Of a stretch of 64,000 nucleotides of DNA, positions 18,269 to 33,028 are shown piece by piece; the stretch's first letter is position 1, and each line of letters starts with the position of its first letter. The notes under the pieces are model-generated. The model was given only the letters and a program-made list of their open reading frames with translations. It was not told where the DNA came from and searched no databases. The stretch is from Escherichia coli. GTDB taxonomy: Bacteria; Pseudomonadota; Gammaproteobacteria; Enterobacterales; Enterobacteriaceae. Position numbers and translations under genes: made by a program. The stretch lies in assembly GCF_044324785.1 (NCBI RefSeq), contig NZ_CP172127.1. One strand, 5' to 3'.

Positions 18269-18913
18269 TCAGCCGGTGCGCAGACCGGCTTCGGTGAAGG
18301 TGTATTCGTTGATGAGAAGGGCCTCATCCACAGGGGCATCTGAGGTCAGCCTGTTGTGCTCGTTTTCCAGTTGACGGTACAGCCATAAGGCCAGGTCGCG
18401 CAGGGCTTCGCTGACAGCGGCTTCCGCATCTGTTGTCATAGTCTGACCAGTCGGACTGTTCCGGGTAACAGTGATATCCATGCTGTACGGATGGCAGTAG
18501 CGTCCCCGGCGGTGGATTTCAGCCTGCAGTTGCCAGAAGTTACGCTTCTGCACCGCCTGCAGGGCATCCGCGATACGATGGAGTTCATGCTCCTGTGGGG
18601 CATACTTCCGGATTATCCGGGCTGTCGCCGGCTGCCAGTGCCAGCGTCCTTCAAAACAGGCTCCGTCCCCCTGGCTGCAGCATCCGCTGAACCAGATGCA
18701 CGGCTCTTCCATAAACCTGCCGTTGCTGAGCCGGAAAACGCGCTGGCGGAGGTCAATTCCGAAAATGTCACAGACCGCCCTGAAGTCCTCATACACGTTT
18801 TCATACCAGTTGCTGTCAGCATGATGCTGACGGTACCCGTCGCGGGCTTTTCCCCGTACCGGGCAGGAAAGTTCATCCAGCGTATACACTGTGATGGTGA
18901 TAATGCTGCTCAT
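18269..18913 (-). CDS. Hypothetical protein (214 aa) between the DUF987 gene and the antitoxin
   Basis: Long ORF in operon orientation; Cys/Trp-rich segment CIWFSGCCSQGDGACFEGRWHW; no family recognised. Confidence 0.5.
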   Translation of the reverse strand: MSSIITITVYTLDELSCPVRGKARDGYRQHHADSNWYENVYEDFRAVCDIFGIDLRQRVFRLSNGRFMEEPCIWFSGCCSQGDGACFEGRWHWQPATARIIRKYAPQEHELHRIADALQAVQKRNFWQLQAEIHRRGRYCHPYSMDITVTRNSPTGQTMTTDAEAAVSEALRDLALWLYRQLENEHNRLTSDAPVDEALLINEYTFTEAGLRTG

Positions 18914-19707: not shown

Positions 19708-20193
19708 TCAGTCAATGATGCGCATAATGGCGCTGCATTCCGGATGCTGCAGGGCGTAATCCCGCAGACGGTAATAATGAACCGTCATGGCATAACACTC
19801 CGTACGGCAGGCGTGATGACTGTACGTCATCAGACAGGCAGCAATGCCGGCGGCTTCCGGGCTCATTTCAGCGCGGTTACCGTTCATGGCATTGAACAGT
19901 ACCCATGTTTCGTCATCATCATCATCCGGTTCGGGGGCCATAAATGCCCCGCCGTTGTTCAGGGTGTACAGATTCCAGATACCACCGCAGTAGTCTTCGC
20001 ACAGACGGTCCATCCAGCCGAAGACACGGGGCTCCAGGGTCACCCACTGTGGAATGAGGCCAAAATGCTGCGGCCAGAAGCTGATGCGCTGTTCATCAGG
20101 GACGGGAGTGGCAACCAGTTGAGACTGGTTATTCCCTGATGCAGTAGTTACGGAAACAGAAGGTGTGGTGGAGCTATGCGAAAAGGTTGTCAT
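19708..20193 (-). CDS. Antirestriction protein, KlcA/ArdB family
   Basis: 161 aa; acidic stretch PEPDDDDDETW and characteristic position upstream of the RadC-like gene. Confidence 0.7.
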   Translation of the reverse strand: MTTFSHSSTTPSVSVTTASGNNQSQLVATPVPDEQRISFWPQHFGLIPQWVTLEPRVFGWMDRLCEDYCGGIWNLYTLNNGGAFMAPEPDDDDDETWVLFNAMNGNRAEMSPEAAGIAACLMTYSHHACRTECYAMTVHYYRLRDYALQHPECSAIMRIID

Positions 20194-20284
20194 GAGATGA
20201 TTCCTTATAAAAAGTAAATGAATGGAAGAATGCCTGGGGACTGGTACAGACGTGAGTCAGGGCTGCACTTTCAGGGAAACAGCA

Positions 20285-21103
20285 TCAGCGCATGCTCTCC
20301 AGCAGCGTTTCTGCCATCACCCACAATGCGCGGTTGAGTTTTATATCGGTATCAATGCTGTGAATGGCCCGGGTATGGATACGTTTTCCTTTTGCACTGC
20401 GACCGGAAATCCCGCCTTTCAGCATATTCTCCTGGATGGTCTGATAAGCACTCCACAGGTCCTTACCGTAATCCTCCCGGCGTCGTGGTGTCAGAATGTC
20501 GGCGGTGGTGACGGGCTGATGTTCGTCACCATAACGGTAAGTCAGTGCCGCCTGTGCCAGCGCCTGGCGTGCCGGTGGCGGCAGGACCAGCGACTGCATG
20601 GCATCACGCTTCTCCTCTATCCGGTCAAACACGCCCACCACCTCGTAAGCCCCTTCAATGACTCTGTCCACCACATTTCCCCGGTGCGGAACACGCACTT
20701 CCCCCAGAGACTGACCGCAGACGCATCCGTTCTGGCAGACGAACCTGAAGTAACCCGGCAGCATCTGGTAGCTGGAGGTACCGTCATGAGAGTTGAGCAG
20801 AATAATTTCAGGGACATGTTGTCCGTTTATCTCCCCGTCACGGCGCAGACGCAGCATGTGTTTGGTATACCCCCGGCGGCCCGGGTCACGTACGCGGGTC
20901 TGGCAGGCGAAGAATGGCTGAAAGCCTTCCCGCTGCAGGCTTTCCAGCACGGTGATGGTGGGGATGTATGTATAGTTCCGGCTCCGGGAGGTGTGTTTAT
21001 CTTCCCCGAAAATCCCGGGCACATGGTGCATCAGCTCTTCACGGGTCAGCGGACGGTCACGGCGTATCTGGTTCGCATAACCAAAACGACTGGCTAATCG
21101 CAT
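20285..21103 (-). CDS. DUF932-family protein (YfjQ/YafZ-like)
   Basis: 272 aa; immediately downstream of the GTPase gene, as in CP4-type elements. Confidence 0.7.
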   Translation of the reverse strand: MRLASRFGYANQIRRDRPLTREELMHHVPGIFGEDKHTSRSRNYTYIPTITVLESLQREGFQPFFACQTRVRDPGRRGYTKHMLRLRRDGEINGQHVPEIILLNSHDGTSSYQMLPGYFRFVCQNGCVCGQSLGEVRVPHRGNVVDRVIEGAYEVVGVFDRIEEKRDAMQSLVLPPPARQALAQAALTYRYGDEHQPVTTADILTPRRREDYGKDLWSAYQTIQENMLKGGISGRSAKGKRIHTRAIHSIDTDIKLNRALWVMAETLLESMR

Positions 21104-21288
21104 ACTTTGCTCCTTATCAGTGGTTAAGACTGAATGACGTAATCAATGAAAAAGCCGCGTCTCACGGAGAAGACGCGGCCTGATGGATGAAATGAATGAG
21201 GGTTTACCGAAGCCCTTCAGCATTGTGGTGACGCAACCGGAAATGCGTTTCCTGGTTATCGCCGGGGCCGGTCAAAAAGCGGGGACAT

Positions 21289-22173
21289 TCAGAACAGGCG
21301 ATCCCACAGTGTGATCAGCAGGCGGATAATGCGATCACGGGCTTTGCGCAGAAGCTGCAGCATCCAGGCCGGAAAGCTGAACCGGGCAATGGCAGCGTCA
21401 AAACTCTGGCCGATGGCGTCACCAAAAGCCTGCTGTGCGTGTTGCTGATCCTGCGCAGTGCGCTTTTCATTCCGGATATGCGAATAAACCGCGCTGGTTG
21501 CCTGTGGTGGCAGGGCGTGGATCATCAGAGACACAAATGCCGGAAGATTCCAGCCGGCAGGAGCGGCAACGGGGAGTACCGGAAATGATGAAGGGAACAG
21601 GGTTGCCACCCGGGCTGTCACCGTCGCCAGCGAGAGTTCCTGGTGACGGGACGGGCATTTTTCTGTGTCGTTCCATTCTTCAGCAGGAAATACGCGATCG
21701 GCATGGCTGAGAACAAACAGAAAACGCGAGGGATCTGCACCTTCATTCAGTAAAAACTGATGCATGGCGATGTCGGCAGCATACGCACGTTCATCAGCCC
21801 GCAGGATCCAGATAATCAGATCCAGTTCGGGCAGTAACTGACTGTAAAGTGCCCGGTATTCCTGATCATGCTGTGGTGTTTCGCCAGTGCCGGGCAGATC
21901 GACCAGCGTCATTCTTCGTTCACCGGGCTGAAAGGTAAGACGATGAGCCTGACGGGTGCAGCCGTTCAGCGGATGCGTGGCGCAGACACGGGACTGAAAA
22001 ATGGCATTGCACAGGCTGCTTTTTCCGGCACCGGATTTACCCATAATGCCAATCACGGGCTCGTAATGAATAACACTGTGGAGATGTTCAAGGATTTTCT
22101 GGCGAATTTCTTCAGGAAGAAACGTCAGATATGATTTCACTTGTGCGGAGAGGGAAGAATGGCTGAATGACAT
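21289..22173 (-). CDS. GTPase-family protein (YeeP/YfjP/YkfA-like, P-loop)
   Basis: 294 aa; Walker A GIMGKSGAGKSSL and G-motifs DLPG…; first gene of the CP4-like module. Confidence 0.8.
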   Translation of the reverse strand: MSFSHSSLSAQVKSYLTFLPEEIRQKILEHLHSVIHYEPVIGIMGKSGAGKSSLCNAIFQSRVCATHPLNGCTRQAHRLTFQPGERRMTLVDLPGTGETPQHDQEYRALYSQLLPELDLIIWILRADERAYAADIAMHQFLLNEGADPSRFLFVLSHADRVFPAEEWNDTEKCPSRHQELSLATVTARVATLFPSSFPVLPVAAPAGWNLPAFVSLMIHALPPQATSAVYSHIRNEKRTAQDQQHAQQAFGDAIGQSFDAAIARFSFPAWMLQLLRKARDRIIRLLITLWDRLF

Positions 22174-22275
22174 ACCGGTATCCTGTTGATTTCACTGAAC
22201 CGGATCACACTAATCCGGTTTATCATTCAGGTAATATGGGCGTGAAAAAATCTGGAGTGACAAAGTTCGGGAGGA

Positions 22276-23229
22276 GTGATGGCATCACTGTCGATTAATA
22301 CGCTACGCCGAATGAGCATTTGTAAAAGTCAGGCCTGGAAAGATACCCAGCGAATACTGAAGCGTAGTGGACTTGTGTACAGAGGGGAACGGTCAGAATC
22401 GTTTGATCCTGAGAAACATTTTAATCGTTATACGGTGCGTTATCTGTACCTGCTTAACATAATTGCGCTTAAGATAAGGTCGGTTAGTAAATTTTCCTGT
22501 TGGATCGAGGTGGGACAATGCCATCGTATGACTGGTAAACATTTATCTCTTAATGCCCCGCCTTTTATGCTGATTCCGCGTAGTATCCGGAGAAAAGTGG
22601 ATGGATTCAGACAGTCAAAAGGTGAAGCAACCCCAAAATCGGCTCAACCGTTCACGGGCAGTTTGTATGAGGTTTTGAGAAAGGAGAGCGATTCAGCTAA
22701 GCTGGACGCATGGATTGCTGAACTGCCTCTGAACTTGCAGGAGGAGGGAAAGGAAATCTCAGTCATGGGATTTAGTCCACGGGCTGTGGCCCGACCTGTT
22801 CTTCGGTCAGCATCCCCGACGTTTGAACTGTTTTATCAGGAGTATCAATCCCTAAGATTAAAATCTGTTTTTAAATTTGAACCAAGATTTGAACAACTTT
22901 TAACAAGACTGAGCTTTAGAAAACAATCAATTCTCAGAAAACAACAATACAGGGTTAAATCGCAATTACTGGAGAGACTGGGGAATGTGTTGTTTTTCAC
23001 GTCGCTTTATAACCAGGGATGTTTAGAGGAGTTTATAAATGCACTTGTGGAAAAGGAGGACATTTATCTGAAAATGTCCCCTGGGGAGGAAAAGGTGAAA
23101 GCACACCAGAAAATGGTTAACTACATTGAAGCGTTCTGCAACAAAATGACGGAAAAATACCTGATGCCCGCAGCAAGCAGACACTACAAAAAGAAGAAAA
23201 TCGCCAGGAGCGAAAGTGGTGAAAGTTAA
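22276..23229 (+). CDS. Hypothetical protein (317 aa, basic), cargo gene of unknown function
   Basis: Long ORF divergent from the GTPase gene; no recognisable motifs; start codon uncertain. Confidence 0.5.
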   Translation: MMASLSINTLRRMSICKSQAWKDTQRILKRSGLVYRGERSESFDPEKHFNRYTVRYLYLLNIIALKIRSVSKFSCWIEVGQCHRMTGKHLSLNAPPFMLIPRSIRRKVDGFRQSKGEATPKSAQPFTGSLYEVLRKESDSAKLDAWIAELPLNLQEEGKEISVMGFSPRAVARPVLRSASPTFELFYQEYQSLRLKSVFKFEPRFEQLLTRLSFRKQSILRKQQYRVKSQLLERLGNVLFFTSLYNQGCLEEFINALVEKEDIYLKMSPGEEKVKAHQKMVNYIEAFCNKMTEKYLMPAASRHYKKKKIARSESGES

Positions 23230-24101
23230 TCCAGTCTACCGTACAGAATCAGTTGTTCCAGAATAGCCTGCTGTGTTGTTTTCCGCTCTCTGGTCAGTCT
23301 GTCCAGAGCGCTTTTTGCGGATGGCGATATCTTTACGTTGATTTGTACCCGTTTATCTTTTTTTCCATCGATAAACTGTTTTCTGAATGCATTGTGCATC
23401 TTGTCGAAAAATCTTTCTTTTGCAGCGAATCCTAGGTGAAATTCTTTTGGCGTCAGTAAACAGGGTGTGTCTGTGGGGAATAACATTTTTAGTAAAACTA
23501 CAATGGCAATATATCTTTCGTTATCATTTACAGGATTAAACCAGGAAAGATATGTGGGTGAGATACGTGCATCAATATATTCCCATGCCCATTTCAGTTG
23601 TTCGGTATTCTTTTTAAGCCATTTGGCTTCGTTTCTCTTTTCGAGTCCCAGCCAGTTTTGATGCATTATTGAGATAATCCGATCTGCTTCCCCATAAAGG
23701 ATTAACGCATTAATCCATTTCCCTATAACATTCAGTCGTGTTTCATGACTTGAAGGAATAATTGTCATGGGGTTATCCTTCATAACGATCACCCCCTTCA
23801 AGGCAGAGTTGAACTCAGATTCATTATTAAGTTTAAGTTTTTCGGGAACTGTATGAGACATAATTAACCAGAACCAGAATGCTGCAATTTCATTTTTTCT
23901 GATCCATTCAGGTATGTGATTATCTGCCAGATTATTATCATTCAATAAATGCTCAGTTGTTTTATTTTTCCAGTCATATCTATTCACGTTATAACCGCCT
24001 TTATATTGTTTCATCTGATTACGCCTCAATCGTTTTCTTTTCTGGTGATTTTCACCATCACATGTCAGTTGTATATGCAAGGGGATCAATAAAAATATCA
24101 C
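23226..24101 (-). CDS. Hypothetical protein with a C-terminal ribbon-helix-helix-like segment (start probably the internal Met at about 24014)
   Basis: 291-aa ORF; C-terminus KRVQINVKISPSAKSALDRLTRERKTTQQAILEQLILYG resembles CopG/RHH DNA-binding motifs; convergent with and overlapping the previous gene by 4 bp. Confidence 0.5.
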   Translation of the reverse strand: MIFLLIPLHIQLTCDGENHQKRKRLRRNQMKQYKGGYNVNRYDWKNKTTEHLLNDNNLADNHIPEWIRKNEIAAFWFWLIMSHTVPEKLKLNNESEFNSALKGVIVMKDNPMTIIPSSHETRLNVIGKWINALILYGEADRIISIMHQNWLGLEKRNEAKWLKKNTEQLKWAWEYIDARISPTYLSWFNPVNDNERYIAIVVLLKMLFPTDTPCLLTPKEFHLGFAAKERFFDKMHNAFRKQFIDGKKDKRVQINVKISPSAKSALDRLTRERKTTQQAILEQLILYGRLD

Positions 24102-25711
24102 CCTGCAAGCACTTCAAAGCTGATTATGGGGATATTCTAGAACTATTCACAAAACTATTCCAGACATATCAAGAACTATTTCTTGACCTATTCATAATAA
24201 AATAAAACATGCTATCAACTACGGCTCATATTCTCCTTGGGGGTGTCGTTGTACTGTTCGACTGTTCTTGTGGTCAGATTAACAATCTGAAGAGTAAAAG
24301 CGACAGTAATCTGTCTGTTATAGTGGCGATAAAAACACTGAATGCGCATCCTGTATGTGAAATCCTGTCATGTAGAGCAGTAAGCAATGACAGACATGCA
24401 TGTTATATGTGAAGGGGGCCGGGAGACGACATAATCAGTATGGCTGTCATTCTGGTTGTAAAACGCGATCACTTTCCGGGGGTAAAAGATGATATGGAGG
24501 TTGACAAACGGTTTGCTTCGGATTGTCTTTTCTGGGGCCTGAAATACGAGGGCAGAAAAATAATTCCAGAGTAAATCTGCTCTGTTTTTAGGACAGAAAA
24601 CTCCATGCTGGCTGTAAAAGTGAAAAATTAACACCCAGTATGTATGGAAGTCTGAAGATGTTGAGAATGTCGGTATGATACTATATACACATATTTTACT
24701 AAGTATTTTTACTAAGCATTTCAGTAAGTGTTATACACGTATTTTCTACTAAGTGTTTTACCAGACATACACGTGTTTTCATAAACAGCCCTATAAGTGT
24801 TTTCATTAAGCATTGCTGTACACATTGCTTTGTCTGAAACACATCCAGTTTAGTAAATCTTTACGTTAGCTAAAATCAGTTTAAAGCTGCTGTAAAACCT
24901 TTCTGTTTAAGCAATCAATCTGCTATTCGATTTTACTGATGTTGCGTTTAACCTTTTCTGAGATTTCGAGTTTCGACGTTAGCATGAGAAAAGTATCTTT
25001 ACGCTAAATCAACCCGAACTTTCCTGAAGTAATCTGACGTTTTTTTCGATGTGCTTACGACGATTCTGTTAAACGACTTTCTGGATGTTTTGATAACAAT
25101 CAGATTGAGGCATTAACGATTCCTGACGTTTTCTTTTCCGTGTAAGGTCATTCTTTTTGTCATGAGGTTTCTTCTTGCATTGCGAAAGTGTGATGAACGG
25201 TTTTGGTGTTTTTGATTCAGATAAGGTTTACGTTATCGATGGTTAATCGTTTTTATGGTGCGTAGTGAAACGTAACTTTTTCAGGATGAGAAAATCGATT
25301 CTGATGTTGGTGATTTTTGTTCTTGTGGCGGGGTTTATCTGTAAACAGGTTTTAAACGTGTCATTCACATCCGTGATTGAGTTGTGTGATTAAGCTGTAG
25401 GTTTTGGGGTTGTTGTTGATTTGCATTACCAGGAAGCGTTCTGGTTGCGTTTCTGGTGTTTTGTTCGAATGTTCTGTGGATCCTTTTCCCTTCTGACTTT
25501 TCTCGTTGTCCATGTCGTTTTTAAATCCATTCGCTGTTCTTGAGTGTTTTTACCCTGCGTGTAGAATTATCTTTTCGTTCCGGGATGGTTTGTTCCGTTT
25601 CAATCACTCTTAATCAGAGAGTTGTAGCATTGCTCAATGCCGGATGCCGTAAAGTTTTACCGCGGTGATTAATGATGTGAAGTCAATCCAAATCAACGGA
25701 GATCTCTCATC
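24102..25711. other. About 1.6-kb non-coding, AT-rich region with short direct repeats upstream of Gp2-like genes
   Basis: No ORF above 90 aa on either strand; repeated TACTAAG motifs within 24690..24770 and two copies of GTGTTTTCAT. Confidence 0.5.
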
Positions 25712-26443
25712 ATGAATCAACCAATACACAATGCTTACTGGTTATCCCGTTTTGAAAGTATTCTCAACAGTGCCCTGGCGCAGCACCGTGCCGTCTCGTT
25801 AATCCGGGTGGATTTACGTTTCCCTGAGTATATGCCTGCCACCATCATGGATACCGATTTAGATTCAGCGGTGATTTCTCGTTTTTTTGCATCCCTGAAA
25901 GCAAAAATTCAGGCTTACCAGCGACATAAACGACGTGCCAACAAGCGTGTGCGTGCAACCACTCTGCGTTATTTCTGGTGTCGGGAGTTTGGCAAGGAAA
26001 AAGGCAGGAAACATTATCACGTGATATTACTGCTCAACAAAGATACCTGGTGCTCGCCAGGGGATTTCACCGTTCCTTCTTCGCTGGCGACACTGATCAA
26101 GCTGGCATGGTGTAGTGCTCTGCATCTTGAGCCCTGGCAGGGTAATGGACTGGTTCATTTTTCCAGGCGGACGCCTTTCCGTAAACCGACATCATCTGAT
26201 GCTCGCCCTTCTTCCGATGATACGCCTTTGTCGGGTGGATGTTCTGAAACCAGGAAGGCTTCAGACAAAAAGCCGGGTGAAGCCGCTGTTCTCTGGATCA
26301 AGCGTGGTGATGTGGAAGCGCTGCAGAAAGCCCGGAACAGAGCCAGTTATCTCGTGAAATATGAGACGAAGCAGCATGACGGTTCCGGGCAACGTAATTA
26401 TGGTTGCAGTCGTGGGCCGGGGCGTCTGCTGGATGGCAGGTGA
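25712..26443 (+). CDS. Inovirus Gp2-like / YagK-YfjJ family protein (HUH-type)
   Basis: 243 aa; HYHVILLL motif and family-typical N-terminus (AYWLSRFESILNSAL…). Confidence 0.7.
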   Translation: MNQPIHNAYWLSRFESILNSALAQHRAVSLIRVDLRFPEYMPATIMDTDLDSAVISRFFASLKAKIQAYQRHKRRANKRVRATTLRYFWCREFGKEKGRKHYHVILLLNKDTWCSPGDFTVPSSLATLIKLAWCSALHLEPWQGNGLVHFSRRTPFRKPTSSDARPSSDDTPLSGGCSETRKASDKKPGEAAVLWIKRGDVEALQKARNRASYLVKYETKQHDGSGQRNYGCSRGPGRLLDGR

Positions 26444-26769
26444 GCCCTGTAAAACGACATCCGGTGCCTGAGCTTATGCTACAGGACGTTGGCTGACGCC
26501 CTTAGCTCGTTTTCTGAAAAAGTCGTCCTGAAGTCATGCAACGGTATTTTTCTCTGCTTTCGCTCCTGGAAACACTCCGTCGGTAAAACCTTACTGTCCT
26601 GCTTAATGATGTGAACCGAAGTCAACGGAGAGCATTCATTCTGAACCTGCATCCGGTGTTCTGTCCCTTGTCGGTTACCTGATCTTCCCGTTCTGCCGCG
26701 GTTTTTCACTTATTCCATCAACCCCATACGCAAGCCATAACACGTCAGCGCATCCACGGGCAGGACGCG

Positions 26770-27372
26770 TTGTGGGCTGCGTATAACGGAACATATCTTA
26801 TGAATGCTATCCCTTATTTCGACTATAGCATGGCGCCCTTCTGGCCATCTTATCAGAACAAAATCATCGGCGTTCTCAACCGTGTGTTGCGCGAGCAGTC
26901 CTGCTCCCGAATACGGCGGATCCTGCTTCGTCTGCCGGGGGAACATGGCAACATCTTCAGCGACAGAAAAACCTGGTTCGGTATGGCCTTTATCGAAACC
27001 GTCAGTGCGCTGATGAATGCAACCCCCGGACGCGACCTCTGCTGGCTCCTGACACGTCATCCTGAAAAACCGGAATACCACGTGGTGCTGTGCGTCAGAC
27101 AGGAATATTTCGACGGCCCTGAGCTGGACCGGTTGATTCTGGATGCCTGGAGCAACGTACTGGGCTTCGCGTCACCGGGTGAAGCAGCACCGTACCAGAA
27201 ACAGATAACCCGGGATGTGGTGCTGGACAGTTGTTCACCGGACTGCGAAGAGAGACTCAAAGAGCTGATATGGGCGTTCAGTGATTTCGCCCGCGATCGT
27301 CGTGGTGTGCGCGATCCGGAAGCCCGTTACCTCGCCGGTAATCCCTGGTATCCCGTAGCAGGCCAGCTCTGA
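26770..27372 (+). CDS. Second Gp2-like/YagK-family paralogue (putative)
   Basis: 200 aa; EYHVVLCV motif in comparable position. Confidence 0.5.
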   Translation: MWAAYNGTYLMNAIPYFDYSMAPFWPSYQNKIIGVLNRVLREQSCSRIRRILLRLPGEHGNIFSDRKTWFGMAFIETVSALMNATPGRDLCWLLTRHPEKPEYHVVLCVRQEYFDGPELDRLILDAWSNVLGFASPGEAAPYQKQITRDVVLDSCSPDCEERLKELIWAFSDFARDRRGVRDPEARYLAGNPWYPVAGQL

Positions 27373-27440
27373 AAGCTCAGCTCAGCAGATTCACCCGCAT
27401 TTGCCCAACATTCATAAATCTCACAGAGGACATTCTGACC

Positions 27441-27677
27441 ATGTTGACCTCAATGACAGGTCACGACAGCGTATTGCTGCGTGCCGACGATCCCCTGATC
27501 GACATGAACTACATCACCAGCTTCACTGGTATGACCGACAAATGGTTTTACAAGCTGATCAGTGAAGGCCATTTCCCTAAACCCATCAAACTGGGGCGCA
27601 GCAGCCGCTGGTACAAAAGTGAAGTGGAGCAGTGGATGCAGCAACGAATCGAGGCATCACGAGGGGCAGCAGCATGA
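27441..27677 (+). CDS. alpA: AlpA-family phage/island regulatory protein (excisionase-like DNA-binding)
   Basis: 78 aa; …NYITSFTGMTDKWFYKLISEGHFPKPIKLGRSSRWYKSEVEQWM… typical AlpA helix-turn-helix. Confidence 0.8.
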   Translation: MLTSMTGHDSVLLRADDPLIDMNYITSFTGMTDKWFYKLISEGHFPKPIKLGRSSRWYKSEVEQWMQQRIEASRGAAA

Positions 27678-27877
27678 AACGTGTTGTAATGCCGGTACGC
27701 TGGCAATGTGCAAAATACCAGCGTTGGTATTGTGGAAATCAGCCCTGTCCCTGGTGCTGGCGACCTGCTGCCCCCGTCTGTCATTCCTCGTTCTTCGCTG
27801 TAACAGGCATCGTACCGGTCTCGGCGTGCTTTCCTGCGTACCGACACCGGTTCAGCAACATTCAAGGGGATCAAATC

Positions 27878-28426
27878 GTGCAAATAACCGAAACCGTACT
27901 TTCAGAGCCGGTGGAAATCCGGCGTTTTATTCAGCAGGCGGTGGATCACTGGCCGCGTCTGCTGGCCGTCCACTTCACACTCCATTCGGCAGAAGGAAAC
28001 ATCAACGGACAACAGATTCATGCATTCTGTACTTCCTTTTACCGACAGGTGCACGAGCGTATTACTGAACGTAATCACACGGCCAGTCCAGCACCACCGG
28101 TGGTATTACGCTGGTTGCGGGAACAACATGGAGGAGCAACAATGCGATGCCTGTTGCTGCTCAGCCAGACGAGCATTTGCCATCCACGGGTCAGTGCCAC
28201 GGTTGATGAAGAATGTTCGCAACGGGTGGATTTATTGCAACAGACATGGCGGGTGATAAGTGCTGACGGACAATGCCGGGTGGAAAGGTGTTTTCAGGCT
28301 GCCCGGGGTGATACATCCGGCCAGTATATTGCGTTAAAAACAGTTGCATTGTCTCTGGGGTTACCGGTTGTGACCGGTATTACCCATCGCCCGGTACAGC
28401 GCTGTACATTGATTACAGCTCAGTGA
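27878..28426 (+). CDS. Hypothetical protein (182 aa from GTG start with AGGGGA ribosome-binding site)
   Basis: The track ORF 27632..28426 overlaps alpA; a GTG at 27878 preceded by aagggga is a more plausible start. Confidence 0.4.
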   Translation: MQITETVLSEPVEIRRFIQQAVDHWPRLLAVHFTLHSAEGNINGQQIHAFCTSFYRQVHERITERNHTASPAPPVVLRWLREQHGGATMRCLLLLSQTSICHPRVSATVDEECSQRVDLLQQTWRVISADGQCRVERCFQAARGDTSGQYIALKTVALSLGLPVVTGITHRPVQRCTLITAQ

Positions 28427-28443
28427 ACAGCGCTGTTGTGCAG

Positions 28444-28746
28444 TCAACGAGGTTTTCTGTCTTTTCGTCGGTCATTCAGCATCATTAAACGGGTCTCTGC
28501 CTCTTTCTGTTCCTGTGGTGTCACTTCCCCGCACGGCTGACCGTTCAGGTTGTAACGGGCGCCACCTGCTATTAACGCACGGTAATAGCGCGGAGACTGC
28601 ACATAAGACGCCACTGCTGCATGTAATGTACCAGCGCCAAACGCCAGTTCTCGGATGGCGATATCCTGTATCAGGTCGTCAGGTATCCCCACTTTAAGTG
28701 GTTTTGTTTTTTTCCCGGTTGAATGACTCAGGCCAGAGTTCCACAA
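28444..28746 (-). CDS. Hypothetical small protein (100 aa)
   Basis: ORF only; possibly one gene with the upstream ORF 28761..28955 split by a frameshift. Confidence 0.3.
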   Translation of the reverse strand: MWNSGLSHSTGKKTKPLKVGIPDDLIQDIAIRELAFGAGTLHAAVASYVQSPRYYRALIAGGARYNLNGQPCGEVTPQEQKEAETRLMMLNDRRKDRKPR

Positions 28747-29295
28747 GACGAATAATGCGCTTACGGTTTTTGCTCTGGCGTTTTGTCATGTCGCCACGGT
28801 GTTTTATCAGCAGGTTTCTGTTTATCGTTCAACTGTGGTATCTGGTCACCGGCCTTCATTTTGTATGCTGTGTCCGTTTTATTCTGCAGCGGCGTTGCCG
28901 GTGATTTACTGAAAATACCCTGCGGTTTACGGTTAATGGTCAGAGTTACCATCAATTTTGTTACCTCGCGCTGTCAATGGAAGTAGTACCTCATCCGATA
29001 TCTGAAAATGTTTTCCGGTGGATGTTACAGCGAATTTCATGTAAGACATGTTGTTGTCGGTATTGTTCAGTACTGTGCGTTGTGAGCGTATTCGTTATCA
29101 GACAGAGGGGCAGGGAACAAATGGCGTGTGAAGCAATCAGCAGGTAATATTAATGGCAGGACCAGCAGGTTCTTTAAACAAACGAACATGCTGTAATTGA
29201 TATTTTGCTTATTGTATTTTCTTTTTAGTTATTAAATTAATTTATTTACGAAAAATTTTCTGCAGATACAGGATGGGAATTCAGTGGATTTGCCC

Positions 29296-30201
29296 CTATA
29301 TTTCCAGACACCTGTTATCACTTAACCCATTACTGGCCTGCTGCCGCAGATATTCCCGTGGCGAGCGATAACCCAGTGCACTATGCGGATGCCATTCGTT
29401 ATAATGCTCGAACGCCTCTGCAAGGTTCTTTGCTGCCGTTAACCCGTCTGGTTTAGGCATGATACTGATGTAGTCACGCTTTATCGTTTTCACGAAGCTC
29501 TCTGCTATGCCGTTACTCTCCGGACTCCGCACCGCCGTGTTCTTCGGTTCAAGCCCCAACATCCGGGCAAACTGCCGTGTTTCATTAGCCCGGTAGCATG
29601 AACCATTATCCGTCAGCCACTCTACTGGAGACGCCGGAAGCTCGTTGCCGAAGCGGCGTTCCACCGCTCCCAGCATGACGTCCTGTACTGTTTCACTGTT
29701 GAAGCCGCCCGTAGTGACCGCCCAGTGCAGTGCCTCACGGTCACAGCAGTCCAGCGCGAACGTGACTCGCAGTTTTTCTCCGTTATCACAGCGGAACTCG
29801 AACCCGTCAGAGCACCATCGTTGATTGCTTTCTTTCACGGCCACTTTGCCAGTATGTGCCCGTTTCGATGGCGGTACAGCGGTTTTTCGCTCAAGCAACA
29901 GCGCATTCTGGCGCATGATCCGGTAAACACGTTTGGCATTGATCGCAGGCATACCATCAAGTTCGGCCTGTCTGCGAAGCAGCGCCCATACCCGACGATA
30001 ACCATACGTGGGCAGCTCTCCGATAACATGGTGTATACGGAGAAGCACATCCGTATCATCTGAGTGACGGCTGCGGCGACCATCTTTCCAGTCATCGGTT
30101 CGTCTGAGAATTACGTGCAACTGCGCACGCGACACCCGGAGACAACGGCTGACTAAGCTTACTCCCCATCCCCGGGCAATAAGGGCGCGTGCGCTATCCA
30201 C
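29296..30201 (-). CDS. insD: IS2 transposase InsD (orfB)
   Basis: 301 aa with integrase-core motifs; recognised as IS2 InsD. Confidence 0.9.
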
Positions 30202-30524
30202 TTTTTTGCCCGTCCATATTCAACGGCTTCTTTGAGGAGTTCATTTTCCATCGTTTTCTTGCCGAGCAGGCGCTGGAGTTCTTTAATCTGCTTCATGGCG
30301 GCAGCAAGTTCAGAGGCAGGAACAACCTGTTCTCCGGCGGCGACAGCAGTAAGACTTCCTTCCTGGTATTGCTTACGCCAGAGAAATAACTGGCTGGCTG
30401 CTACACCATGTTGCCGGGCAACGAGGGAGACCGTCATCCCCGGTTCAAAGCTCTGCTGAACAATTGCGATCTTTTCCTGTGTGGTACGCCGTCTGCGTTT
30501 CTCCGGTCCTAAGACATCAATCAT
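30159..30524 (-). CDS. insC: IS2 InsC (orfA)
   Basis: 121 aa from [40 protein letters not shown]…; overlaps insD in the usual -1 frameshift arrangement. Confidence 0.9.
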
Positions 30525-30615
30525 CTGCTCTCCAATGACTAGTCTAAAAACTAGTATTAAGACTATCACTTATTTAAGTGATATTGGTTGTCTGGAGATT
30601 CAGGGGGCCAGTCTA

Positions 30616-31340: not shown

Positions 31341-32210
31341 TCATCCCCTGAACACCTCCCGCCGGTGCCACGCCACAAACCCCTCCTGGGGATAGCATTC
31401 TTTCCCCATCGGCAAGGTAATCGGCTTACCATCAAAATCCCAGAACAACCTGCCAACGATGCCTCCGCCGTTCACCGCCGGCGAAACCTGGATGCGCATA
31501 TCCTCATCCAGACCAATGGATCCTTTATCAAAAGCCTTATGGTGAATCGCGCAGAGCGCCAGGCCGTTAGGGATTTCGCAGGGGCCGCCGTGCTGCTTCC
31601 ACTTGATATGGGCCGCTTCCAGGGCGACGGAGGTATTATCATGGCGCATATTGAAGCCGCAGATAGCGCACTCATAGTTATAGGCGCGCAGCACCTGCTG
31701 GCGAAAATGCGGGTCGCGCTCTTTGCGGATCTGCAGCAGATCAAACCCCATCTCTTCAGCCAGTTCTTCCTGAATACTCTCCGGAAAGTGCGCCTCGAGG
31801 ATCTGATGGGCGAGGGTATTGATCAGCTTCTTATTTCTGTTAAGTAACGCAAAATGCTGCTCATCAAAGCCGCCGGCGACGTGGCAGAGCTCCAGCTCTT
31901 TGCCGGGCGGCTGTCGGCTGCCCTGGGTTGAGCACTGTTCGCTGTTGTGTAGCTCCCAGAAGCCGTCGCCTTTCAGGCGCCAGAAGGGCATGTCCGGCCG
32001 GTACTGGCGGCGCTGCGGGCCAAAGCGTTCCAGCAGGCTATGCAGCTCATCACGTATCTCCGAGGCGTAGTCGAACATCCGCGCATGGCCGCGCTGGTAT
32101 TGCGAGAGGACGTACAGCAGCAATAGTGGTTTATGCGGCGCACGCTGTTCGCCTTTGCGCCAGATGGTGATGTTCTCGATCGCGTGTTGCAGGGTCGTGC
32201 TGGAGGGCAT
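31341..32210 (-). CDS. HNH endonuclease-domain protein, putative modification-dependent (type IV-like) restriction nuclease
   Basis: HNH core YECAICGFNMRHDNTSVALEAAHIKWKQHGGPCEIPNGLALCAIHHKAFDKG in the C-terminal half; N-terminal about 180 aa unassigned. Start taken at the second Met (MPSSTT…). Confidence 0.6.
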   Translation of the reverse strand: MPSSTTLQHAIENITIWRKGEQRAPHKPLLLLYVLSQYQRGHARMFDYASEIRDELHSLLERFGPQRRQYRPDMPFWRLKGDGFWELHNSEQCSTQGSRQPPGKELELCHVAGGFDEQHFALLNRNKKLINTLAHQILEAHFPESIQEELAEEMGFDLLQIRKERDPHFRQQVLRAYNYECAICGFNMRHDNTSVALEAAHIKWKQHGGPCEIPNGLALCAIHHKAFDKGSIGLDEDMRIQVSPAVNGGGIVGRLFWDFDGKPITLPMGKECYPQEGFVAWHRREVFRG

Positions 32211-32389
32211 AGCGTTACATTGGCAGCTAAATAAATGCGATGATGCTCGCAAAATCCTTGCCGATCAACCTACCAGATGCGGCGATTCTACGTGGATCGC
32301 GATTTAATTATCACTGCCAGTTATTTGTTCGAAAAGACCATAGCTTTCTATTTATACTCAAGCTTCGCGCCATCAGATAGCTATGTCTT

Positions 32390-33028
32390 ATGAAAAAACT
32401 ACCGGACCATTTATCCAGGGAATGCATCATCGCCGCCATTCGCGCTTACGATGCAGGCGTTGCGCATCAGTTTAAAAGCGCGCGTCTGTATGAGATCGAG
32501 TTTGAGGGGCGTCGGTATCCTTCAAAAGCCATCGTCGGGTTAGCGGCCACGCTTGCGACGGGAACGGAATTTACCCCGGCGGATTTCAGCGGGGGGATTA
32601 AATCAAAATGCGTGCGTCTGTTACTGGAGCAAGGATTTACGATCGCGTCGCAGGGCGCTGGCGATGACGAGGTTGCGCTTTTCCCCGATGAGGGGCAGAC
32701 GACCATGGAGTACGTGGAAGGGGCGGCGTTGCAGGTGGTGGTCAATCGCTATGAGCGCGACCGTCAGGCTCGTCAGGCGGCGCTTCGCCTGCATGGCTGC
32801 CAGTGTCAGGTATGCGGTCTGGATATGGCCAGCCGCTATGGCGATATCGGCCAGGGCTTTATCCATATCCACCATCTCATCCCGCTGGCCGGGATAAAGC
32901 AGGACTACCGCCTGAACCCTGAAACCGATCTGATCCCGGTATGTCCCAACTGCCATGCGATGCTGCACCGGCGAGATCCGCCGTTTACCCCCGAAGAGCT
33001 GAAGGCCCGGCTGCGCCCCACAGACTGA
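32390..33028 (+). CDS. McrA-like HNH endonuclease with a distinct N-terminal domain
   Basis: C-terminus CQCQVCGLDMASRYGDIGQGFIHIHHLIPLAGIKQDYRLNPETDLIPVCPNCHAMLHRRD parallels the E. coli McrA HNH motif (C.NCG…HHVIPLS…CPNCH..LH). Confidence 0.65.
   Translation: MKKLPDHLSRECIIAAIRAYDAGVAHQFKSARLYEIEFEGRRYPSKAIVGLAATLATGTEFTPADFSGGIKSKCVRLLLEQGFTIASQGAGDDEVALFPDEGQTTMEYVEGAALQVVVNRYERDRQARQAALRLHGCQCQVCGLDMASRYGDIGQGFIHIHHLIPLAGIKQDYRLNPETDLIPVCPNCHAMLHRRDPPFTPEELKARLRPTD

Follow-up and report, generated by a model that had tools for sequence, protein, structure and literature searches.

The Stl-type master repressors of the Staphylococcus aureus pathogenicity island (SaPI) phage satellites combine a conserved DNA-binding module with a very divergent domain, lie at the junction of two gene blocks and show high allelic diversity. 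Comparable features are found in a locus of two genes, here termed A and B, in a CP4-like island of Escherichia coli, which was analysed in a stretch of 64,000 nucleotides (contig NZ_CP172127.1 of assembly GCF_044324785.1; hereafter the window) covering the chromosome near setC/yicL/nlpA. The product of B joins a putative ribbon-helix-helix (RHH) domain to a divergent N-terminal domain, the locus is placed between the two gene blocks of the island, and many alleles occur in one species. A and B are tentatively interpreted as one of the alleles of a hypervariable locus that would serve control or sensing and belongs to the backbone of one CP4-like island lineage. The locus lies at the junction of a leftward block, running from a GTPase gene to CbtA, and a rightward block with Gp2-family and AlpA-like genes.

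22279..23229, plus strand: gene A, 316 amino acids (aa), isoelectric point (pI) 9.9 (9.89)
23226..24014, minus strand: gene B, 262 aa, with a Trp-rich helical N-terminal domain and a C-terminal RHH

The likeness to Stl has its limits, as Stl uses a helix-turn-helix (HTH) domain and B an RHH, the island has no known helper phage or inducer, the GAATAG repeats next to B are 1.5 kb from the Gp2/AlpA genes, and A has no SaPI counterpart. A second comparison is offered by CopB (RepA2) of IncFII plasmids and the CopG-type RHH repressors: in 9 of 10 family members, the final ~45 residues of B can be aligned with their strand-helix-helix. As in these systems, short operator-like repeats adjoin B and a rolling-circle-type initiator gene is nearby; however, the CopB/CopG-type repressors are proteins of 45–85 aa which are essentially RHH alone, whereas in B the RHH is C-terminal and follows a 210-aa N-terminal domain. 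The scores are also far under the family cut-offs (29 against 87 bits), and a role of B in controlling a rep gene would be an analogy drawn from this likeness.

In CP4-57 of E. coli K-12, the same relative position, between a Gp2/YfjJ-like gene (yfjJ) and the island GTPase gene (yfjP), holds abpAB, yfjM and rnlAB, which include the anti-phage systems AbpAB and RnlAB and are unrelated to A and B. The K-12 GTPases YfjP, YkfA and YeeP are 32–36% identical to the GTPase of the present lineage, and K-12 AlpA shares 25% identity. In tblastn searches of CP4-57, CP4-6 and CP4-44, no homologue of A, B or the alternative proteins described below was detected, and YfjH (318 aa), YagM and YagJ, considered as relatives of A by size or position, were excluded. 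The CP4-like prophage regulator RgdR (PMC3378721), a protein of 99 aa, is unrelated to either gene. Both A and B are annotated as hypothetical protein everywhere, and a literature search by accession, island gene names and GTPase names retrieved no paper on these genes.

A reading of the sequence alone (the sequence-only reading) had described A and B as two convergent open reading frames (ORFs) overlapping by 4 bp between the GTPase gene and the Gp2-like/AlpA genes, AT-richer than their surroundings and not assignable to any family. Both are present in the ORF list, where their stop ends share 4 bp, and the flanks are as described. The guanine-plus-cytosine (GC) content over 22250–24250, which covers A and B, is 0.35–0.46 vs 0.50–0.60 in the flanking GTPase, DUF932 and Gp2 genes. 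Profile searches for both proteins and structure searches for A placed neither gene in a characterised family; whether run with single proteins, alignments or distant homologues, searches of Pfam, NCBIfam, PADLOC, PHROGs and PDB sequences yielded no more than a weak RHH signal.

A polymorphic slot with four forms

The position occupied by A and B was delimited by comparison with other copies of the island, whose genes were named from near-identical RefSeq genomes.

21289-22173, minus strand: GTPase gene, the constant partner of the slot and the first gene of the leftward block
25712-26443, plus strand: Gp2-family gene, a rolling-circle-type initiator gene
27441-27677, plus strand: AlpA-like HTH gene
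about 22249..24557, no strand: variable cassette of 2.3 kb, defined by blastn break points against loci L028, L029 and L031
7575-8798 of locus L028 (E. coli AR_0011): A-like single gene, 976 genomes
7659-8789 of locus L029 (E. coli A36): A-like single gene, 463 genomes

The GTPase gene with the adjoining intergenic region was found at 2,506 places in 1,871 of 5,426 complete E. coli genomes (about a third). Similarity to the GTPase query ends at query position 549–559 in many genomes, and three other occupants of the slot were identified where similarity breaks off some 30 nt ahead of the A start, on a backbone that is otherwise about 92% identical. On the left the cassette begins just past a promoter-like core, and on the right it ends shortly ahead of a hairpin at 24567–24584; it is replaced as a block by forms containing an A-like gene only (A') or a B-like gene only (B').

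The single-gene occupants encode proteins of 407 aa (rightward), 376 aa (rightward) and 345 aa (leftward), none of which has a match in Pfam, NCBIfam or PADLOC. The 407-aa and 376-aa proteins are remote members of the A family (hmmsearch E 2e-7 and 2e-12; hhalign 95.8% and 98.1%), aligning over the N-terminal core of A and carrying about 90 extra N-terminal residues. This extra part contains a C-x4-C...C-x2-H (LC-x2-HY) pattern without a Pfam match, and in sequence the C-x4-C...LC-x2-HY motif resembles a small zinc finger. The 345-aa protein belongs to the B family and includes the RHH (E 5e-25; hhalign 98.9%).

The 407-aa form was counted at 1,069 places, the 376-aa form at 516 and the B-like form at 72 (megablast), while A+B was counted at 810 (blastn). 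Together the four forms account for 2,467 of the 2,506 GTPase places (about 98%), the counts being taken from separate searches and summed across searches rather than locus by locus. A-like genes occur alone, with no B, at 1,585 places, and the B-like gene is alone, with no A, at 72. In every form found, the E. coli slot holds an A-family and/or a B-family gene, and such filling of one backbone position by alternating members of two families appears to be undescribed. The iteron-like region and the Gp2 gene further to the right are kept unchanged in the forms without B or without A.

The sequence-only reading had regarded this position as a slot for variable cargo. The position is polymorphic, with four occupants on the ~92% backbone, as is also seen from AbpAB/RnlAB in CP4-57; interchangeable cargo of unrelated gene sets was not found, as all occupants belong to the A/B superfamilies (hhalign 96–99%).

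Conservation, selection and distribution

The A-B stretch (1.7 kb) is contained in 742 of the 5,426 complete genomes, at up to four places per genome, with classes of identity that range from about 74% to 100%. Among five alleles, the pairwise ratio of nonsynonymous to synonymous substitution rates (dN/dS) is 0.39–0.64 for A and 0.23–0.48 for B, compared with 0.11–0.32 for the GTPase, 0.22–0.31 for Gp2 and 0.04–0.14 for DUF932 at the same loci. A and B are under purifying selection that is clearly more relaxed than that on their neighbours, and they are real genes rather than chance ORFs, since the pair occurs in 742 genomes with dN/dS below 1.

Every distant A homologue on a readable contig is followed by a convergent gene encoding 256–291 aa that aligns with B, the two genes being joined by a 4- or 26-bp overlap or separated by a gap of 13–71 bp. 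The order ...DUF932...WYL-GTPase(-)/A(+)/B(-)/AlpA/Gp2-like(+) is kept in Citrobacter amalonaticus Y19 and three metagenome contigs, and GTPase(-)/A(+)/B(-)/non-coding/AlpA-Gp2(+) is the order in the window and in nine E. coli loci with several distinct alleles. Identity to the distant islands is 21–34% for A and 21–60% for B vs 55–69% for the GTPase, 67–70% for AlpA and 73% for DUF932, and the constant order despite this difference indicates that the pair is ancestral at its position and evolves faster than any other part of the module. Conservation or selective constraint in related islands, which had been set beforehand as a test of the pair, is thus seen both in the gene order kept at such low identity of A and in the dN/dS values. 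Inheritance of A and B goes together with that of one particular GTPase clade and one particular AlpA clade. Among E. coli alleles, the N-terminal domain of B shows 19–93% identity and its RHH 33–96%.

No match to A or B was detected in 50,697 phage records. On plasmids the genes are confined to two of E. coli, an IncI plasmid and NZ_CP010123, and two Klebsiella records labelled plasmids that resemble chromosome pieces; on the IncI plasmid, A-B-non-coding-Gp2-YfjI was captured as one island block. In one scan of genome collections a single metagenome-assembled genome was found, and in another none. Cargo shared with other mobile elements or hotspots is not indicated, the plasmid copy examined being a captured island fragment, and the pair is probably not portable or transferable cargo, because its position, neighbours and protein families are constant across genera and it was not found in other mobile elements.

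These data bear on the main rival to the control-locus reading, in which the cassette would be a defence or abortive-infection system against phages or other mobile genetic elements, with A as an effector of new fold, B as a DNA-binding sensor or regulator, possibly the GTPase as a further component, and the four forms as arms-race specificities. The low GC content of A+B, the very deep alleles within one species (down to 19% identity in the N-terminal domain of B), the dN/dS values above those of the neighbours and the presence of up to four A+B copies per genome would all suit such a system, but the cassette never travels outside this backbone, is absent from the phage records, and has occupant families that are constant across genera instead of being swapped for unrelated systems. 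The presence of AbpAB and RnlAB at the same relative position in CP4-57, as well as the weak AIG1/dynamin-type matches of the GTPase, also point towards defence, to which are opposed the convergent arrangement without an operon, the single occurrence of A and of B, and the lack of a PADLOC model for 25 family members. In PADLOC-DB v2, neither A and B nor 10 distant A, 10 distant B and the three alternative proteins gave a match apart from one chance-level hit to JetA (E 0.011). On balance a defence function is considered rather unlikely.

Gene A

22279..22848, plus strand: N-terminal core of A (residues 1–190), 66–92% identical among E. coli alleles and the part in common with the single-gene A' forms
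22849..23226, plus strand: variable C-terminal half of A (residues 191–316), 32–92% identical among E. coli alleles

A GTG codon at 22276, one codon upstream of 22279, gives a 317-aa reading of A. As the sequence-only reading had stated, the protein is basic and contains no recognisable motif: no significant match was obtained in Pfam, NCBIfam, PADLOC, PHROGs or PDB sequences, the best PHROGs match being non-significant (E 0.15). A profile search of 1.84 billion representative proteins retrieved only 48 relatives, of which about 17 are full-length with 23–30% identity. The AlphaFold model built from this family alignment (predicted local distance difference test score, pLDDT, 84.8; predicted template modelling score, pTM, 0.83) is mostly helical with a small sheet. 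No solved structure matched the model, fold searches showed no likeness to a relaxase, Rep or primase fold, and Foldseek against AFDB50 returned its own family alone, consisting of uncharacterised proteins from E. coli, Hafnia, Salmonella and Citrobacter. A thus represents an uncharacterised small family of Enterobacterales, with a predicted fold that has no detectable relative.

The entire family is basic (pI 9.1–9.9), and its conserved polar residues are mostly Arg/Lys, with one Tyr and one Glu (IRRKVD.F.Q, GSLY, LE..RL). Conserved positions include W20, R104, R105, K106, Y130, E188, R191 and R301. The core contains the motifs S..AW.NTQ..LKRSG, F.F..V..LY.L, I.P..IRRKVD.F.Q, GSLY and PTF.L..E..RL. 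The C-terminal half co-varies with B (Spearman 0.57–0.65) and not with the N-terminal core of A (0.2), a pattern suggesting that it is exchanged together with B.

Gene B and its candidate operator

23229..23369, minus strand: CopB/RepA2-type RHH segment of B (about residues 216–262), with the strand RVQINVKIS followed by two helices
24130..24195, minus strand: about five GAATAG-type direct repeats, 115–180 bp upstream of the start of B, candidate operator of B

The full ORF of B (23226..24101, minus strand, 291 aa) exists as the sequence-only reading had given it, but its start was placed too far upstream, as the extension to GTG 24101 is not conserved. The most likely start is ATG 24014 (MKQYKGG..., 262 aa), since it is the start in the RefSeq/PGAP annotation and in all homologues and has GAGG 9 nt upstream. 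The N-terminal domain of about 210 aa is helical, Trp-rich and highly variable, contains no conserved catalytic-looking motif and has no detected relatives; relatives of B found by word-indexed search were E. coli clusters only.

The RHH-like end noticed earlier is recovered in profile searches, where the C-terminus of B in the window has weak matches to RHH_1 (independent E-value 0.17), PF10723 (RepB-RCR_reg; 0.38) and NF010256 (E 0.03). NF010256, which describes CopB/RepA2, matches 9 of 10 distant B homologues (best E 5.9e-7, with 29 bits vs the curated cut-off of 87), precomputed PF10723 matches exist for several family members, and PGAP names an isolated C-terminal fragment of B as replication regulatory RepB family protein. 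The segment of about 45 aa has the strand-helix-helix layout of an RHH (RVQINVKIS-PSAKSALDRLTRE-RKTTQQAILEQLIL), aligned in all 13 family members and with polar residues alternating along the strand, and helices predicted by AlphaFold2 at 231–244 and 248–257 after an extended segment. Given the weak matches to the three models, the recurrence of NF010256 in homologues and the PGAP name, the C-terminus of B is accepted from its sequence as an RHH DNA-binding domain of the CopB/RepA2-type branch. It is probable that B is a DNA-binding regulator, which would be a new architecture within a known DNA-binding class.

The GAATAG array overlaps a promoter-like site for B (TTGTGA-18-CATAAT, 24152->24123) found in the promoter scan. 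In the window it consists of three exact and two degenerate copies, which are the sole cluster of the motif. Alleles L018 and L019 have four exact copies at 11-bp spacing, these being their only copies in 5 kb, and L022 has two, while no copies are present in L023, whose RHH strand is QISALIS instead of QINVKIS. The 11-bp-phased repeats are therefore found only alongside the QINVKIS strand, a pattern as would be expected if an RHH protein contacted one face of the DNA at the promoter of its own gene. As the array upstream of B tracks the sequence of the RHH strand, autoregulation of B at this site is judged reasonably likely.

Insertion sequence (IS) elements have disrupted B in loci L021, L025 and L026, where A is intact with an unchanged protein sequence. 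These are three independent insertions (IS66-family ISCro1 and two of the IS3 family), with none in A, and the bias may reflect an AT-rich target preference or selection for the loss of B.

The disruptions are informative on whether A and B could form a type II toxin-antitoxin (TA) addiction module that stabilises the island, with A as the toxin and B as the RHH antitoxin. Like TA systems with RHH antitoxins of the ParD, CcdA or RelB types, which are common, the locus is a two-gene unit containing an RHH protein with probable autoregulation; moreover, the variable half of A co-varies with B, and addiction modules fit the context of an island that already carries a CbtA/CbeA module. However, A and B are convergent genes with separate upstream regions and promoters and are not co-transcribed, and they are not obligately paired, B having been broken by IS66 or IS3 elements in three loci without change in the A protein and each family occurring alone at the 1,585 and 72 places given above. 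In addition, B is a folded protein of 262 aa with its RHH at the C-terminal end, unlike short antitoxins, and A has no known toxin fold. A TA module is thus very improbable. More generally, an obligate TA or effector pair is unlikely, because the genes are convergent, A-like and B-like genes occur singly, and B is IS-disrupted with A intact; of the earlier suggestion of a regulator plus effector or an effector pair, the regulator remains reasonable for B, while the obligate effector pair is not supported.

Non-coding regions of the locus

22174..22278, no strand: GTPase/A intergenic region of 105 bp, with a conserved -10-like TAATAT at 22232–22237
24262..24490, no strand: near-invariant non-coding block inside the A+B form only, about 90% four-way identity
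24567..24584, no strand: bidirectional terminator-like hairpin found by the terminator scan on both strands, about 10 bp past the right edge of the cassette and inside the conserved backbone

Across six E. coli alleles the GTPase/A intergenic region hardly varies, although the genes on either side differ by 0.1–0.3 at synonymous sites. Its core, GGTAATAT(A/G)GNCGTGA, is kept in Citrobacter and one metagenome locus about 40 nt before the start of A and is probably, from its sequence, the -10 region of the A promoter. Nested inverted repeats lie in or overlap the region, with outer arms of 16 nt at 22163–22178/22215–22230 and inner arms of 8 nt (AACCGGAT/ATCCGGTT) at 22198–22205/22213–22220, which are invariant in all E. 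coli slot forms and absent from the Citrobacter and metagenome relatives. As an operator of B this repeat was rejected, since neither L023, which has a different RHH strand, nor the forms lacking B show any change in it. The GTPase start codon falls within the outer left arm, and on the GTPase mRNA the inverted repeat could sequester the start site.

The block at 24262–24490 has 12 variable sites in 230 nt among four alleles, whereas the flanking genes differ strongly. It has no Rfam match (an Rfam search of 20000–30000 gave one chance-level hit only). It was rejected as protein-coding, as the ATG of a 67-aa ORF is lost in one allele and no codon periodicity is seen, and as a structured RNA, as it gives no consensus-fold signal. 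Located between the GAATAG array and the hairpin, the block could correspond to a divergent transcript or a protein-binding region. The hairpin is covered by the interval 24540–24660 (plus strand), for which alifold gives z = -4.2.

Beyond the hairpin, in the conserved non-coding stretch before the Gp2-family gene, about seven ACTAAG(Y)(R)TTT-type repeats form an iteron-like array (24680–24820). Alleles differ in this array by repeat-unit indels, and it may function as an origin or be bound by the Gp2-like initiator.

Such an array raises the question of whether A and B serve island replication or transfer as accessory factors, B being a CopG/CopB-like copy-control or a relaxosome-type RHH protein at the origin of the Gp2-like initiator and A a DNA-processing or origin-binding partner. 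All RHH matches of B are to replication regulators (NF010256 RepA2/CopB, PF10723 RepB-RCR_reg and IncL/M RepC), but the GAATAG array adjoins B and not Gp2 or the iteron-like repeats. The Gp2-family gene is always on the B side, past the conserved 1.5–1.7 kb non-coding stretch with these repeats, and A-B-non-coding-Gp2-YfjI stayed together in the IncI plasmid fragment; yet the iteron-like region and Gp2 are unchanged in the forms without A or B, so that neither protein is required for origin function, and A shows no relaxase, Rep or primase fold likeness. Such a role is regarded as distinctly unlikely.

A possible island control locus

In the control-locus reading, B would be a dimeric repressor of the CopB/CopG kind, whose C-terminal RHH would bind the 11-bp-phased GAATAG repeats upstream of its own gene, thereby autoregulating B and possibly gating transcription toward the Gp2/AlpA side. 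Its large variable N-terminal domain may be a sensor or a partner-binding domain. The conserved basic N-terminal core of A would be the constant working part of the locus, acting on nucleic acid at the island and reaching DNA via the fused Cys-rich finger where A' is the only gene, or assisted by B in the A+B form, while the variable C-terminal half of A would provide an interface or specificity part. By analogy, the locus may then be a control or specificity switch of the island rather than a defence cassette that can be transferred, following a logic like that of the variable master repressors of phage satellites.

Several points weigh against this interpretation. The proposal that A acts on nucleic acid rests on its charge, its conserved Arg/Lys/Tyr residues and the Cys-finger fused in its relatives, the fold searches having been empty, and A has no homologue of known function. 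The RHH scores are far under the curated cut-offs (29 vs 87 bits), the operator is deduced from repeats seen in only a few alleles, physical linkage could by itself explain why the C-terminal half of A co-varies with B, and the occupant counts come from separate searches not cross-checked per locus. Furthermore, an arms-race function, for instance in defence, would account just as well for the low GC, the deep allelic lineages and the raised dN/dS, and defence genes do occupy the corresponding slot of K-12 CP4-57.

In a bolder proposal, the A core, as a fold not seen before, would do the work in a novel DNA-targeted system of conflict or sensing. It would have the island GTPase as its partner and be directed to its target by the Cys-finger or by B, and the four forms would be alternative specificities that balancing selection maintains in a third of E. 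coli genomes. This proposal is regarded as unlikely.

Such islands rank among the most common accessory elements in E. coli, the GTPase type being present in 1,871 of the 5,426 complete genomes, and their biology (excision, transfer, host effect) is poorly understood. The sole strongly polymorphic point of their conserved backbone is always filled by two uncharacterised families, one of them with a confidently predicted fold lacking relatives. Should it prove to be a switch of the island, the locus can be expected to show what triggers these 'cryptic' elements; should its role be defence or sensing, bacterial immunity gains a new protein family. A clean test host is probably available in K-12, since neither family is present in CP4-57, CP4-6 and CP4-44, the K-12 regions compared.

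Neighbouring genes of the island

After the GTPase gene, the leftward block continues with genes for DUF932, antirestriction, RadC/JAB, DUF987, CbeA/CbtA and DUF4942 proteins. A 214-aa protein (18269–18913), encoded between the DUF987 and CbeA-family genes, is hypothetical in all genomes inspected. To the right of B, 1.7 kb without annotated genes is followed by the Gp2-family gene, a hypothetical gene, the AlpA-like HTH gene and a YagK/YfjJ-domain gene, all rightward. The island thus has two Gp2/YagK-YfjJ-type genes (25712–26443 and 27860–28408), and no integrase gene was noticed nearby.

Beyond these genes are a frameshifted ProQ/FinO gene (about 28426–28934) and an IS3 element (29296–30569), from which the right end of the island appears to be degraded. 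Just past the IS3 element, a gene annotated as a phosphorothioated-DNA-binding restriction endonuclease and a divergent HNH endonuclease gene (about 31341–33028) apparently represent a true region of defence-type cargo in the same island. Outside the island, to the left of yicS/nlpA, the segment 3238–11398 encodes Type III secretion proteins, namely an IpaD/SipD-type tip protein, a YopB/SseC-type translocon protein and a SycD-type chaperone, together with the regulator eilA.

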